From a bacterium (GTDB lineage Bacteria; UBA8248), in the NCBI GenBank assembly GCA_965219955.1, contig OZ244799.1:2400001-2464000 (forward strand): a stretch of 64,000 nt of DNA. The letters are read 5' to 3'. This document shows positions 32,431-37,044 of the stretch, piece after piece. Position 1 is the first letter of the stretch. Each line of letters opens with the position of its first letter. Position numbers and translations under genes: made by a program. The notes beneath the pieces were generated by a model. It worked only from the letters and a program-made list of their open reading frames with translations. It made no database searches and was not told the DNA's origin.

Positions 32431-34197
32431 CTACCACCCCACCGCGTAGGACTCGCGCCTCGGGTCGGCTCCTGCGAGCAGGAAGCCCGTCTCGGGGTCC
32501 TTCACGATCGCGCAGACGCTGCCGGGCGGCCAGCTGAAATCGGGCCACGAACCCATCTTGTAGCCCATCCCGGTGAGCGCGCCGCCTGCGTCGCTCAAAA
32601 GACGCGCCTCCGCCCGCGCGCTCGCGGGTTCGTAAGCATGGGGCCAGAAGGAGTTGGGGAAATTGGCGGTGGCCGCCCTCGGCGCTTCGATCGCCATCTG
32701 CGGCAGCATTTCGAACAGGACGTGGTTCAGGAACACCTGCAGCATGGCCTGGGGCTGGACGTCGCCGCCCGGTGTGCCCAGCGTCATGTAGAACGCGCCG
32801 TCTTTTAGCGTCAGGGCGGGGTTCGGCGTGAGCCGGGGCCGCTTCCAGGGCGCCAGGCAGCTCGGATGGGCCGGGTCGAGCCAGCTTTGGGAGCCGCGCC
32901 CCGAGACGGTCGCTCCCACGCCCGGAACGAAGGGCATGGAGTTCGCGGGGTCCGAAGGCGTGCAGGAGAAGGCGTTTCCCTCCGAATCCACCGCCGTGCA
33001 GTAGGAGGTGTCGTGCTGGTATTCGGGCGCAGCCTCTTCGGGAACACGGTGCGCGCCGTCATACCTCCACGGATGGGCGCCCCCCTGTTGCGCCCAGGGG
33101 TCTCCGGGTTCGGGCATGTCGGCGAAAGCCTTATCCATATCTACGCGCTCCGCCTGCTTTGCGGCGTATTCTTTGGAGAGAAGGCCGTCTATGGGCACGT
33201 CCACGAACTCGGGATCCCCGATGAAGGCCTCCCTGTCCGCAAACGCGAGGTTGAGCGCACTCATGAGGGCGTGGAGGTAGCCCGGAGAATTATGGCCGAG
33301 AGCCAACAGGTCGAAGTTGGAGAGGATGTTCATCGCCTCCAGCAGCGTCGGGCCCTGGCACCACGGGCCGCAGGCGTAGACCTCGTGCCCTAGGTATTCC
33401 GTAACCACAGGCTCTTCTTCGAGCACGTGGAAATCGGCGAGATCGTTCAGGGTCATCAGGCCACCCTCTCGCTGGATGAAATCGACCATCAACCGCGCCG
33501 TCTCCCCGGTGTAGACCTCATCGCGCGCCGCGCGCACGCCCCCGGCGCGACCGCCGCCCGCTCTTTGCTCCGCGCGCACCATGCGCCGCATCGTCCCGGC
33601 CAGATCGGGAATCCGCACCCGCCCGCCCACGGGGATGAGGTCGCCGGCGGGAAAATAGACGGGCCGCGTCGATTCCCAGCGGTAGTAGTCTTGTTCGGCC
33701 GATTTGATGTGCTCGTACATGAAATGGTGCATGGGAAAACCATCTTCGGCCAGGGAGATGGCGTCTCCGGCGACTTCGGCGAAAGTCATCGTGCCGTAGC
33801 GCGCAAGCGCCGTGAGCCATGCGTCTATCGCAGCGGGGGTGACGGCGCGGCGCACGCCTGCGGGAATCTCGCCGCCGCAGTTTTTCTCGAACCACTCGAT
33901 AGAGGCCGCCTTGGGCCAGCGGCCGAGCCCGCTGATGGTGAGGACGCGGCGCTCTTTCGCCAGATAGATAATCGTGGGCGCGACGCCCAGGAACGACACC
34001 ATGTCGGAGTGGAGGACGCTCAGGCAGATACCGGCGGCGACGCCGGCGTCTATCGCGTTGCCTCCCTTCTCCAGGATCCTCAGGCCCGCCTGGCTCGCGT
34101 AGTGATGGCCGGAGGCGACCATCGCCTCGCGCGCGCTCACCTGCGGCCTGTGGGAGATGTATTCACGTCCTTCGGGGGTGGTGTGGCGAAACGCCAT
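32431..34197 (-). CDS. ggt: Gamma-glutamyltransferase family protein
   Basis: GGNAIDAGVA, DTSYCTAVD nucleophile Thr, GTPGGDVQPQ, GADPRR. Confidence 0.92.
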   Translation of the reverse strand: MAFRHTTPEGREYISHRPQVSAREAMVASGHHYASQAGLRILEKGGNAIDAGVAAGICLSVLHSDMVSFLGVAPTIIYLAKERRVLTISGLGRWPKAASIEWFEKNCGGEIPAGVRRAVTPAAIDAWLTALARYGTMTFAEVAGDAISLAEDGFPMHHFMYEHIKSAEQDYYRWESTRPVYFPAGDLIPVGGRVRIPDLAGTMRRMVRAEQRAGGGRAGGVRAARDEVYTGETARLMVDFIQREGGLMTLNDLADFHVLEEEPVVTEYLGHEVYACGPWCQGPTLLEAMNILSNFDLLALGHNSPGYLHALMSALNLAFADREAFIGDPEFVDVPIDGLLSKEYAAKQAERVDMDKAFADMPEPGDPWAQQGGAHPWRYDGAHRVPEEAAPEYQHDTSYCTAVDSEGNAFSCTPSDPANSMPFVPGVGATVSGRGSQSWLDPAHPSCLAPWKRPRLTPNPALTLKDGAFYMTLGTPGGDVQPQAMLQVFLNHVLFEMLPQMAIEAPRAATANFPNSFWPHAYEPASARAEARLLSDAGGALTGMGYKMGSWPDFSWPPGSVCAIVKDPETGFLLAGADPRRESYAVGW

Positions 34198-34479
34198 GGG
34201 GGTCCTCCTCATCCAAGGAGTTCAGAGTAGCCGCCATCTTGCCAGATGTGTTCCGGGGAGCGCAAAGAGCCGGTTCCGATTGAGGAAGGAGGGACTGCAG
34301 ACTGAGGAGGGAATCAATTCTCAGCGAAGAGGGGTTGTTGAAATAGCTTCGACAAACGAGGGTTTGACTCGGCCGGGGAGGGGGTTGTAGGGGCCGCATA
34401 TATGCGGCCCTTGCAGTGGGTGCGAAAAACCCAGGGTCGCATATATGTCGGACATATATGTCCGTATATGGACGCCCAC

Positions 34480-34730
34480 GAGAATGCAAGCGGTTTTTGG
34501 GGAGGGTTCGGCGCAAAGCGGTTCGGCTCAGTCGTATATCCGGCCTCTTCGTTGCGGCGCTTTACTCTGGCCGCGGGCCCGTATGGAGATAGGTGGACCG
34601 GGTCCAAATCGACCTGGTGAGCTCGGTGGCTCTGGACATATATCTGGTTTTCCCGGTCCCGTCTCGATGACCGTTTGCCCTTACCCTTCCTCCGGCCTGC
34701 TCACATTCCTCCCGGCTCTATCCGTGCGCC
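34480..34730 (-). ncRNA. Putative bridge/seek RNA of the IS110 element (ends approximate)
   Basis: Four segments matching target and donor junctions in LTG-RTG-LDG-RDG order (see findings). Confidence 0.7.
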
Positions 34731-34736
34731 CGCCGC

Positions 34737-35762
34737 TCAGGCGAGGGGCGCCGGCTCCCTGTAGACATCCTTGTTCCGCATCAGCGCCCACGCGATGCGC
34801 GCCATCCGGTTCGCCAGCGCCACCGCCACCACCTTCCTCGGCTTGCGCGCCAGCATCCGCGCCAGCCACGGACACGGCGGCTTCCGGCGACGCCCCGCCC
34901 AGCGTATCTCCGACATCGCGCCCGATATCAACAGACGCCTCACGTCGCGCTGGCCCATCTTCGACATGCCCCCCAGACGGGGCTTGCCCCCCGTGGAGTG
35001 CTGCCGGGGAACCAGACCCAGCCAGGCCGAGAAGTCACGGCCCCGACGGAAGTTCTCCACCGGCGGCGCGAACGCCCGGATCGCCGACGCCGTAATCGGA
35101 CCAACACCCGGGATGCTCATCAGACGCCGCGCCTCCTCGTCCGCGTATGCGCTCGCCCGGAGCCGTCCGGTCAACTCCCGGACCTTCGCATCGAGGCCGC
35201 CAATCTGGGCGAGCAGAATCCCGCCCAACTCGCGGACCTCCTCGGGCAGGCCCGATTCCGCTCCCCGAACCGCCGCCGCCAGCCGTGTGAGGCCCACGGG
35301 CCCTTGCCGCTCGACGACCCCGAACTCCGCCAGGTGGCTGCGCAGCGCGTTGCGCGCCTGCGTGCGCTGACCCACCAGCAAATCCCGCGTGCGGTACTCC
35401 ATCCCACACCCCTGCTGCGCTTCGCTCTTCACCGCCACGAAGCGCATCGTCGCCCGGGTGGCCGCCTCGCAAATGGCCTCCGCATCCGCCGCGTCGTTCT
35501 TGTGGCGCTTCACGTAGGGCTTCACGTAGACCGGCGGCATGAGCCGAACCTCATGGCCGAGCTTGCCGACCTCGCGCCCCCAGTAGTGCGCGCTCGCGCA
35601 CGCCTCCATCGCCACCACGCATCGAGGCTGCGACGACAGAAACTCCAGCACCTTCGCCCGCGTCAGCTTCTTGCGGAACGCGACCCGCCCGTCCGCCCAC
35701 GCGCCGTGGAGTTGAAAACTGTGTTTCGCCAAGTCGACCCCGATGATGTAGACTCCTCCCAT
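34737..35762 (-). CDS. IS110 family transposase/recombinase
   Basis: DEDD RuvC motifs IGVDLAK, MEAC, KNDAADAEAI; SIPGVG; GLVPRQHSTGG Ser; ATG after AAGGAG. Confidence 0.97.
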   Translation of the reverse strand: MGGVYIIGVDLAKHSFQLHGAWADGRVAFRKKLTRAKVLEFLSSQPRCVVAMEACASAHYWGREVGKLGHEVRLMPPVYVKPYVKRHKNDAADAEAICEAATRATMRFVAVKSEAQQGCGMEYRTRDLLVGQRTQARNALRSHLAEFGVVERQGPVGLTRLAAAVRGAESGLPEEVRELGGILLAQIGGLDAKVRELTGRLRASAYADEEARRLMSIPGVGPITASAIRAFAPPVENFRRGRDFSAWLGLVPRQHSTGGKPRLGGMSKMGQRDVRRLLISGAMSEIRWAGRRRKPPCPWLARMLARKPRKVVAVALANRMARIAWALMRNKDVYREPAPLA

Positions 35763-36141
35763 GGTCGTCTCCTTCCGGGCGGTGTGTGACGTCGTCTCGC
35801 CACATTCTAATCCGCCGGAAGGAGGCGTCCACCCCATCGACCTACACACGAACAAATTTTCCCTCTCTGATTTTTTCAACAGCCCCTTGTCAGGGGGGGT
35901 AGGGGGGGGTGGTTTTCAAGGCGAGGGAGGCGTCCCCTCTACCCCTGAAAAAGTCAATCTCGGTCGGCTCCGACACCGGAATGACGAGCAAAGCCGCAAG
36001 GGCTGTAGGGACAGGCCTCCGTGCCTGTCCGAAACCCTGAAAAGGACAACCACGGAGGGTTGTCCCTACAACCGCAACACCGACCAACGGGGGGTTTTTC
36101 AACAACCCCGACAAGGGGGGGTTGCCTCTCAAAGCGAGAGC

Positions 36142-37044
36142 TTACGCCGTGGCTTGCTCCACGAACCGCATATCCACGGCCTGCTCGTAGGAAACGCCCG
36201 TCTCTATCAGCCCGCCGCTCAGGCACGCGTCCCGCAGCCATTCGAAACTCTCCTGCGCGAGATATGGGTTCCGGTTCCAGAGGCCCAGGCTCTTGTAGCG
36301 CGCGATGGCCTGAGTCAGAAGGTCTGGGTCCATCTCCTCGAACCAGGACTTCACGAGGGAGGCGACGGCTTCCGCGTCGTTCTCCGCGATCCAGCGCTCG
36401 GCCCTCGCCATGGCGCGTGTCATGCCGAGGGCGGATTCGGGCTGCTCCCGCAGGAACGATCCCGGCGCATAGAACGCCGTATAGGTCGTAAGCCCCCGCT
36501 CCGCCGCCTGATACCAGATATGGCCCGCGCCTTCACGGATCAACTCCTCGGCGAATGGCTGAAACACCTGGATGACGTCGGCATCGCCCGCGCGCAGGGC
36601 GTCCGCGTTCTCGCCCATCGTCCGGTCCGGGATTCTGTTCAGGGCATCCGGGTCCAGCCCCGCCAGGCGCAGGTCGTGCTGCAAACACATCCAGGGGGTG
36701 GGCACCTCGCTCACCGTGGCGACCTTGGGACCCGCCAGATCGCTCATCCGAAATCCTGCGTTCGGCTCGCGACCGATCAGGAAAAACGGGTCGCGGCAGA
36801 CGACCTCGCAGAACACCTTGAGGTCGCAGTCCGGGTCCTTGTCGTACGCCACCAGGACGCGCATGGGGCCGCCCCAGCTCACCTGCGCCTCGCCGGACAT
36901 GAGCAGTTCCGCGTTCCGGGCGGGGTCGGGCGACGTCTCGATGCGAACGTCGGCGCCCGCCTCCTCATAGGCTCCCAGGGAGAAGGCGGCGTAGAACGGC
37001 GTGTAGAAAACGGCCCTGAAATTCTCGAGCAGCGTGATACTCAC
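36142..37044 (-). CDS. ABC substrate-binding protein, NMT1/THI5-like
   Basis: ENFRAVFYTPFY, SWGGPMR, RDPFFLIGR, FQPFAE. Confidence 0.8.
   Translation of the reverse strand: MSITLLENFRAVFYTPFYAAFSLGAYEEAGADVRIETSPDPARNAELLMSGEAQVSWGGPMRVLVAYDKDPDCDLKVFCEVVCRDPFFLIGREPNAGFRMSDLAGPKVATVSEVPTPWMCLQHDLRLAGLDPDALNRIPDRTMGENADALRAGDADVIQVFQPFAEELIREGAGHIWYQAAERGLTTYTAFYAPGSFLREQPESALGMTRAMARAERWIAENDAEAVASLVKSWFEEMDPDLLTQAIARYKSLGLWNRNPYLAQESFEWLRDACLSGGLIETGVSYEQAVDMRFVEQATA

Follow-up and report, generated by a model that had tools for sequence, protein, structure and literature searches.

The window, a 64,000-nt stretch of a bacterial genome (GTDB UBA8248; contig OZ244799.1 of assembly GCA_965219955.1, positions 2,400,001 to 2,464,000), contains an insertion sequence (IS) with its transposase gene on the minus strand. 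We read this element as a functional IS of the IS1111 group whose 3′ non-coding end encodes a guide-bearing bridge or seek RNA, and we put the probability of this reading at about 0.9. The element adds to a known kind, the IS1111-type bridge/seekRNA elements that target repetitive extragenic palindromes (REPs), like ISPa11. New here are a well-resolved RNA scaffold for a little-studied clade and the retargeting among near-identical copies of one genome.

The insertion sequence, its ends and its target

The IS occupies 1375 bp of the window, from 34465 to 35839. The left flank ends in ...GGACATATATGTC-CG, also read as ...GGACATATATGTCCG (CG = 34463-34464), and the plus-strand IS starts with TATATGGACGCC at 34465. 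At the opposite side, the IS ends in ...GGCGTCCACCCCAT-CG, or GGCGTCCACCCCATCG, at 35839, and the right flank opens with ACCTACAC at 35840. Both joins between flank and IS were read directly, so a CG is present at each junction. We assigned the right-hand CG (35838-35839) to the IS and the left-hand one to the flank. Searching the element's own 4.28-Mb genome (G000 in coordinates below) with the IS gave 15 matches: eight full-length copies (1-1375; c1 to c8), one full-length relative with 78% identity (L009), and fragments for the rest. The ends of the IS are fixed by the eight copies, which align over exactly 1-1375, and every copy has an uninterrupted transposase gene of 341 amino acids. Copies c1, c2, and c3 are identical to each other, as are c4 and c5. 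Compared with c1, copy c7 has 13 and copy c8 has 22 differences, all within the transposase gene except a 3-nt guide patch in c7 that is described below. An uninterrupted paralogous site, ...GTCGGACATATATGTCCGACCTACAAACC, is found in the same genome at G000 450402(-), and two contigs from public runs read straight across the IS position, representing empty sites. An initial annotation of the window had proposed an intact IS whose excision restores an uninterrupted site. Both points are borne out, the first by the DEDD transposase, the exact ends of the eight copies and their intact genes, and the second by the empty paralogous site and the contigs joining across the IS. The IS is intact and apparently recently active.

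The copies might instead be inert relics that were spread by larger segmental duplication rather than by transposition. Nothing specific speaks for this explanation, although the flanks of several copies belong to repeat families and could mimic a shared context. Against it, sequence identity breaks off precisely at the IS ends in all eight copies and the flanks are dissimilar, one copy (c2) splits a gene for a CobW-type GTPase, all eight transposase genes are intact, and five copies fall into two groups of identical sequence. We consider an origin by segmental duplication highly improbable.

The transposase matches the Pfam domains PF01548 (DEDD_Tnp_IS110, E 2e-13) and PF02371 (Transposase_20, E 8e-23), and it reaches 302 bits with the NCBIfam model NF033542, 'IS110 family RNA-guided transposase', for which the cut-off is 140. 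We aligned the protein with 76 relatives, giving 77 sequences; four of 80 loci were left out because of stops, N, or short length. The catalytic residues D10, E53, D90, and D93 are invariant in this alignment together with G-L-x-P-x-Q-x-x-x-G-G. The loop motif of the present protein reads GLVPRQHSTG, of which G, L, P, Q, and GG belong to the invariant positions, and a GL-P----S(t)G loop motif has been defined as a trait of the IS1111/IS110 family (PMC11187229). Residues 1-334 of 341 align with transposases of the IS4321/IS5075 family at 38-39% identity (E ~5e-58), and the solved IS621 and ISCro4 proteins align only over the C-terminal residues 192-331 (IS621, E 4e-9). Subterminal inverted repeats and a long non-coding stretch downstream of the gene are described as traits of the IS1111 group (PMC11187229; PMC11208160), with repeat lengths given as 7-17 bp in PMC11208160 and as usually 11-13 bp in PMC11187229. 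Here the repeats TGGACGCC and GGCGTCCA are 8 bp long with asymmetric extensions of 4 nt and 6 nt plus the common CG, and the non-coding DNA amounts to 272 nt downstream of the transposase gene (34465-34736) versus ~75 nt upstream. Based on the full-length protein alignment and these family traits, the element can be assigned to the IS1111 group of the IS110 family.

The IS sits in a REP-like palindrome, which in turn lies in a dispersed repeat resembling a miniature inverted-repeat transposable element (MITE), with the inverted termini GGGGTTGTTGAAA... and ...TTTTTCAACAGCCCC. Uninterrupted relatives of this repeat span the join elsewhere in the genome (for example, 1537299-1537466 and 150989-151137). 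Most of them have the plain palindrome GGGTCGCATATATGCGACCC at the target place, and the expanded form ...CATATATGTCGGACATATATGTCCGACC..., in which the target sits, is found in the window's copy and a handful of others. Two REP classes with the common stem CGGAC...GTCCG are present in the genome. Class 1 has the loop ATATAT followed by ACC, and class 2 has the loop CTGCGT followed by CCC. The class-1 target is a rare variant, of which the genome retains one empty perfect 15-mer; ten empty class-2 sites read TGCGTGTCCGCCC. Insertion is site-specific and creates no duplication beyond the shared core, with seven of the eight copies at the same position of the two REP classes. The nesting of IS in REP in MITE, aimed at the host's own repeats, had been correctly recognized in the initial annotation as far as the nesting goes. 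The aim is at a minority variant, however, and extends to the commoner second REP class through two further guides, B and C.

Guide segments on a conserved predicted RNA scaffold

Four short segments on the minus strand of the non-coding end correspond to the target and the IS ends: ATATATGTCC (34643-34634), AGGTCG (34615-34610), CTCCAT (34588-34583), and ATATACG (34539-34533). All four were found where they had been proposed. By chance, the window would be expected to contain ATATATGTCC 0.02 times, but this 10-mer is present three times: two copies lie within the palindromic target and one in the non-coding end. Viewed in the orientation of the transposase, the 10-mer is the complement of the right target's top strand. 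The RNA order in this orientation is the complement of the right target (top strand), a copy of the left target with the core, a complement-type match to the left IS end, and a copy of the right IS end with the core. The segments had been described as the succession of left target, right target, left donor, and right donor guides (LTG-RTG-LDG-RDG). They do occupy guide positions, but left and right were named on the plus strand of the window; the transposase orientation gives the IS1111 order, the reverse of that in IS110/IS621. The IS1111 seekRNA order is likewise described as reversed in IS110-type elements (Siddiquee et al., 2024; PMC11187229).

We compared the non-coding end with those of related elements. 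A protein scan of genome contigs found 80 loci with 56-81% amino-acid identity in Alphaproteobacteria, Vicinamibacterales, Nitrospinota, Binatia, and other lineages, most of them from metagenome assemblies. Downstream of the gene, 78 of these loci match a profile of the RNA region, and the remaining two are cut by the contig end. The structural alignment contains 62 distinct ends out of 64 unique ones, as L022 and L071 were left out for poor alignment of the donor region. The RNAalifold consensus has six helices with 28 pairs, in which 97.4% of 1735 cells are standard pairs; compensatory changes occur in 14 of the pairs. On each of five pairing measures, all 500 column shuffles fall short of the consensus, and sliding the partners by 1-3 columns leaves only 24-43% paired. 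With two outer pairs added to the consensus, 95.5% are paired. One pair of helix P3 (90/105) has 31 compensatory cells, three pairs of P5 have compensatory changes, and P4 is invariant.

The guide segments fall in unpaired columns that are hypervariable or semi-variable, and the remainder of the alignment is conserved. The target segments form both strands of one internal loop, and the donor segments are single strands on either side of the donor arm. The expectation of two internal loops thus holds for the target segments, but the donor segments flank a second arm. Two registers of a closing helix directly around the donor strands (candidate 'P6') were inspected, and as neither holds across the family, this helix was dropped. 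In the single-sequence fold, the target loop is closed by GGACCGGG/CCCGGUCC and CCAG/UGG around the hairpin GAGC/GCUC. The first ~60 nt of the non-coding end (minus-strand 34674-34736, GGAATGTGAGCAGG...GGTAAGGGCAAA) are conserved among the homologues and unpaired in the consensus fold; a role as a processing or protein-binding site is possible.

Whether the segments track the DNA of each homologue was measured as the longest run shared by a segment and its cognate DNA, against the non-cognate pairings of the same set. We extracted 66 unique ends and used the 58 that have at least 12 nt of flank on each side, the other eight being truncated where the contig stops. The 5′ strand of the target loop has a mean run of 5.98 with cognate and 3.18 with non-cognate DNA, and runs of at least 6 occur in 35/58 cognate versus 96/3244 non-cognate pairings. 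For the 3′ strand of the loop, the means are 5.93 and 2.97, with runs of at least 6 in 33/58 versus 33/3244. The 3′ donor strand (ATATACG) has means of 6.59 and 3.55, and the exact 7-mer is shared in 50/58 versus 104/3068 pairings. As the cognate runs exceed the non-cognate ones in three of the four segments, these three behave as guides. Four loci that are unaligned at the IS end downstream of the RNA (L023, L025, L028, and L029), and whose right target is therefore unreliable, were kept in the counts, so that some low cognate scores reflect IS ends that could not be placed. Within the same genome, the loop strands of the 78% relative L009 differ and correspond to its own flanks (TGAA-CG, TTCAT-CG). 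The 3′ donor strand also follows its own IS end in L009 (ATACA instead of ATATA) and in the remnant L010 (ACATA). Covariation with targets and ends is therefore found for both target segments and for ATATACG, whereas CTCCAT, a 5/6 match, is too conserved to show discriminating covariation.

The matches between the non-coding end and the flanks could be DNA leftovers, such as a captured or duplicated REP or IS end, with the protein alone picking the target. The guide-encoding DNA does act as, or resemble, a recombination or duplication site, as a 75-nt tail bounded by ATATACG in c7 and a 131-nt array in another genome (L049) indicate, and the RNA is a prediction from sequence. Captured DNA, however, would not be found, in 62 homologues with mutually unrelated targets, always in the same pair of single strands within a covarying scaffold, nor would it change by exactly the bases that separate two target classes. 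Such an RNA is also an experimental requirement of related IS1111 members, according to the description in PMC11187229. We therefore regard the leftover explanation as very unlikely, and the RNA-guide reading is followed below. The features are collected in Table 1.

Table 1. Positions of the features of the insertion sequence, its predicted RNA and its target in the window.
Feature	Position	Strand	Basis
Complete IS, 1375 bp	34465..35839	-	8 genomic copies with same ends, 98-100% identity
Transposase gene, 341 aa; DEDD/RuvC-like N-terminal domain and Transposase_20 C-terminal domain	34737..35762	-	Pfam, NCBIfam
Sigma-70-like sequence 5′ of transposase gene (TGGACG, 16 nt, TAGAAT); putative promoter	35804..35831	-	consensus match: 1 found vs 0.1 expected
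Predicted bridge/seek RNA core; outer helix P0 (34673-34668 with 34524-34519) around target arm and donor arm	34519..34673	-	RNAalifold, 62 homologues
Predicted target arm: P1 (34659-34652 with 34602-34595), P2 (34647-34644 with 34606-34604), hairpin P3 GAGC/GCUC (34632-34629 with 34622-34619)	34595..34659	-	consensus fold
Target loop 5′ strand; guide ATATATGTCC = left flank of the IS in the window	34633..34643	-	hypervariable in homologues, tracks flank
Target loop 3′ strand; guide AGGTCG = reverse complement of CG+ACCT, right flank of the IS in the window	34607..34618	-	sequence and homologue tracking
Junction strand 5′ of donor arm with CTCCAT, 5/6 match to CCCCAT at transposase-proximal IS end	34580..34594	-	
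Predicted donor arm: P4 GGCC/GGCC (34579-34576 with 34545-34542), P5 GCGGC/GCCGC (34574-34570 with 34558-34554)	34542..34579	-	consensus fold
Junction strand 3′ of donor arm with ATATACG = last 5 nt of IS non-coding end + CG	34525..34541	-	cognate-end matches
Conserved TTGCAT; a circle junction would form the hexamer TA + CG + AT at a distance of 17 nt	34484..34489	-	homologue conservation
Subterminal inverted repeat TGGACGCC, non-coding end; 4-nt extension TATA before it	34469..34476	.	sequence; conserved in homologues
Subterminal inverted repeat GGCGTCCA, transposase-proximal end; then 6-nt extension CCCCAT + CG	35824..35831	.	reverse complement of 34469-34476
Left half of target: REP-like palindromes GGGTCGCATATATG / TCGGACATATATGTCCG	34434..34464	.	
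Right half of target: ACCTACAC	35840..35847	.	
MITE-like dispersed repeat, ~180 bp	34331..34464 (left part), 35840-35886 (right part)	.	blastn vs genome: 77 matches left, 14 right

Just right of the MITE-like repeat, the window holds a member of another abundant REP-like family (35990-36075, GTAGGGACAGGCCTCCGTGCCTGTCC...). Many genomic copies of this family come after GTTGAAAAAG...TGTCCGACCTTCGAG. A terminator scan found none.

Guide variants among copies of one genome

The sole difference between c1/c2/c3 and c4/c5 is three adjacent bases at 34639-34641, TAT versus CGC, which change the guide ATATATGTCC to ATGCGTGTCC. TAT is present in c1, c2, c3, and c8, and CGC in c4-c7. The two states of this patch match the two REP classes of the genome. 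Copy c6 has additional changes at 34612 (A>C) and 34616 (G>C), which convert AGGTCG to AGGGCG, and its change at 34656 (G>A) retains the P1 pair as G-U. We refer to ATATATGTCC as guide A, to ATGCGTGTCC as guide B, and to guide B with AGGGCG as guide C.

Six of the eight copies fit their own guide. With guide A, c1, c3, and c8 are in class-1 sites, ATATATGTC^C(G)^ACCTAC, with 10/10 identity. Copies c5, c6, and c7 are in class-2 sites, (C)TGCGTGTC^CG^(A/C)CC, where c5 and c6 have 9/10 identity to the guide and c7, carrying guide B, is placed in a class-2 REP when its duplicated tail is set aside. The altered 3′ strand of c6 fits its own CG+CCC flank with a score of 5 versus 2 for the unaltered version. 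The other two copies are crossed. Copy c4 has guide B in a class-1 site, ATATATGTC^C^ACTG, and c2 has guide A in a gene site that resembles the left target of guide B shifted by one base, with CGACCT. The initial annotation had expected other copies between the left target, CG, and ACCT. This is the case for c1, c3, and c8, but not for c4, which lies before ACTG without the G, for c5-c7 in the second REP class, or for c2 in a gene. The term 'programmable', as applied to this recombinase, would rest on the natural guide variants.

Copy c2 (L002, G000 1959372-1960746) splits a CobW/COG0523-type GTPase gene into L002:2878-3795(-) and L002:1074-1499(-). The IS separates the cobW nucleotide-binding domain (E 1e-61) from CobW_C (E 9e-27). 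Copy c2 is an off-target, gene-disrupting insertion.

Several loci carry parts of the non-coding end outside a simple IS copy. Next to copy c7 (G000 4138591-4139965), the final 75 nt of the IS are duplicated (G000 4139961-4140035), and the class-2 REP follows beyond this duplicate. The duplicated tail begins directly behind the ATATACG that encodes the guide and reaches as far as the IS end; the 7-nt direct repeat created by the donor guide borders the unit. At L049 of another genome, a perfect tandem array comes after the IS (L049:2360-3393). Its period is 131 nt, and it has at least 7.9 copies up to the end of the fetched locus. The unit of this array is the donor arm plus the IS tail, and the array could be an amplification of the tail module or an assembly artefact. 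Among a total of 11 RNA-end loci in the present genome, two have RNA ends without a transposase gene. The first (L010, G000 1860714-1860903) still has the final ~45 nt of the gene, and 8/9 positions of its 5′ loop strand agree with the flank. The second (L012, G000 3812420-3812582) begins immediately after a tRNA-Ser(CGA) gene, and its IS end is decayed. In three loci of other genomes (L019, L024, and L047), the RNA end is matched in full a second time, ~100 nt upstream of the transposase gene. The flanks of L024 resemble the end of a related IS (...GGGGGCG | TCCATAGAC...), which suggests an IS with guides that may be aimed at the end of another IS.

The crossed copies allow two explanations under the bridge-RNA reading. 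Copies c2 and c4 may have inserted under their own guides, with the 3-nt patch swapped later by gene conversion or homologous recombination. Apart from the patch, copies with guides A and B show no difference in their 1375 bp, and a conversion tract would thus be invisible elsewhere. Copies c7 and c8 differ from c1 at 13 and 22 positions, nearly all in the transposase gene, which makes recombinants between lineages plausible. On the other side, the c2 site has no in-register left run longer than 1 nt that matches guide A and resembles the shifted target of guide B, which means that this explanation needs a swap in c2 as well as in c4. We judge a later swap to be a real possibility that falls somewhat short of even odds. 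Alternatively, the guide RNAs may act in trans as a repertoire of three variants, 3-6 bases apart, together with the two RNA-only loci, so that the landing site would depend on the variant that loads the transposase. We put this forward tentatively and consider it less likely than not. If it were true, both crossed insertions, including the one that destroyed the CobW-type GTPase gene, would be accounted for, and bridge RNA retargeting would be seen to proceed in real time between two host REP classes.

Expression, proposed mechanism and relation to known systems

Five RNA-library runs contain 8-15% of the sampled words of the IS. Contigs of four RNA libraries from two studies cover 34433-34803 at ~96-97% identity, a stretch that takes in ~30 nt of the REP flank, the non-coding end, and the final codons of the gene. 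Little of the transposase gene is covered, and the uncovered parts of the IS are no evidence of silence. No circle junction was seen in the RNA-run contigs. The conserved TTGCAT near the IS end is a candidate −35 element of a junction promoter, by analogy with other IS110-family elements (PMC12288879). TTGC is present at this place in 59 of 66 homologous ends, and in 44 of these 59 the spacer is 17 nt.

Several observations weigh against a functional, RNA-guided IS. The single-sequence fold energy of the non-coding end is unexceptional (z = −1.51), although the target arm is nevertheless visible, and the P0 helix of the element in the window is weak: two of its six positions do not pair, and its contiguous pairs number four (CGGU/ACCG). 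A permissive Rfam scan of 33500-36800 gave no match with E < 5, only chance-level miRNA and snoRNA matches. The 5′ loop strand shares a run of 5 nt or less with the flank in 23 of the 58 loci, and such low-scoring cases are genuine. The 5′ donor strand (CTCCAT) shows no difference between cognate and non-cognate pairings (means of 4.47 and 4.35) because its CCAT core is constant; at its variable position, 23 of 50 usable loci are identical to the IS end, 20 are wobble-compatible, and seven are mismatched (16 loci were dropped). Two of the eight copies, c2 and c4, fit the guide of another copy better than their own. Copies c4 (G000 694059) and c8 (G000 4205791) are without the G of the left CG (...GTCC|TATATGG), whereas c1 and c3 keep it in the same context, and this loss is not predicted by a simple exchange at CG. 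The RNA-library contigs come from relatives and cannot show transcription, strand, or ends, so they are a weak hint of expression.

In the mechanism we propose, the non-coding end would be transcribed, probably with or after the transposase mRNA, and the transposase would bind the transcript as a bridge/seek RNA. In the REP loop and 3′ stem (ATATATGTC+C), one DNA strand would pair with the 5′ loop strand, and at CG+ACCT the other DNA strand would pair with the 3′ loop strand. The donor strands would hold the joined IS ends of the excised circle, and the shared CG would be the place of strand exchange. The circle junction may also make a promoter (TTGCAT, 17 nt, TA-CG-AT). Guides A, B, and C would direct copies to the two REP classes of the host. 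In this way, the IS would track the diversification of the host REP hairpins, with occasional off-target gene disruption. Bridge/seek RNA recombinases are under development as programmable genome-insertion tools. The clade of ~80 sampled relatives offers a clearly delimited RNA scaffold, natural guide diversity, the cores CG, TG, and AG, and a donor strand that changes with the IS end.

The element closely resembles the seekRNA elements ISPa11, ISEc11, ISKpn4, and ISPst6, for which PMC11187229 describes DEDD transposases of 330-350 aa, subterminal inverted repeats, and a long downstream non-coding region, as found here. In the published description, ISPa11 also targets REPs, with an RNA from the downstream non-coding end that is established experimentally (PMC11187229). 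The seekRNA of the ISPa11 group and the RNA here both have the top-strand complement 5′ of the bottom-strand complement. Bridge RNAs are predicted in 93% of IS1111 elements (PMC11208160). The present element differs in its inverted repeat of 8 bp, shorter than is usual there, and has the core CG; its RNA and transposition are deduced from DNA sequence. Natural retargeting is described for ISEc11 and ISXne4, whose transposases are 72% identical (PMC11187229). Here, retargeting is between copies of the same genome that are 3 nt apart, and near-identical copies that differ only in the guide patch and lie in the matching REP class would represent a finer-grained natural reprogramming than the published pair.

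The core of IS621 is CT. As described for IS621 (Durrant et al., 2024; PMC11208160; PDB 8wt6), the RNA here has a target loop and a donor region that would each read both DNA strands around a shared core dinucleotide. IS621 likewise targets REPs (as cited in PMC11208160 and PMC11187229) and has the same transposase domains. Its RNA is upstream of the gene, whereas the RNA here is downstream, with the order of the two target strands reversed. The outer helix here surrounds both arms and the donor strands flank the second arm; in the described IS621 structure, the donor strands line an internal loop. IS4321/IS5075, also of the IS1111 family, were compared by their transposases and share the family traits, but they target the inverted repeats of Tn21-type transposons instead of REPs.

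The ISPpu9/ISPpu10 elements of Pseudomonas putida, with MITEPpu9 (ssr9), are IS110-family elements that also occupy REPs, and their downstream RNA-gene module is described as occurring alone or in tandem (PMC12288879). In the present family, this is paralleled by the RNA ends without a transposase gene (L010, L012) and the duplicated tail modules (c7, L049). A junction promoter is described for ISPpu10 in the same source. The downstream Ssr9 RNA of ISPpu9 is described there as dispensable for transposition, with a bridge RNA implied upstream of tnp on the tnp transcript (PMC12288879). Unlike in ISPpu9, the downstream end of the present IS is itself the predicted guide-bearing RNA.

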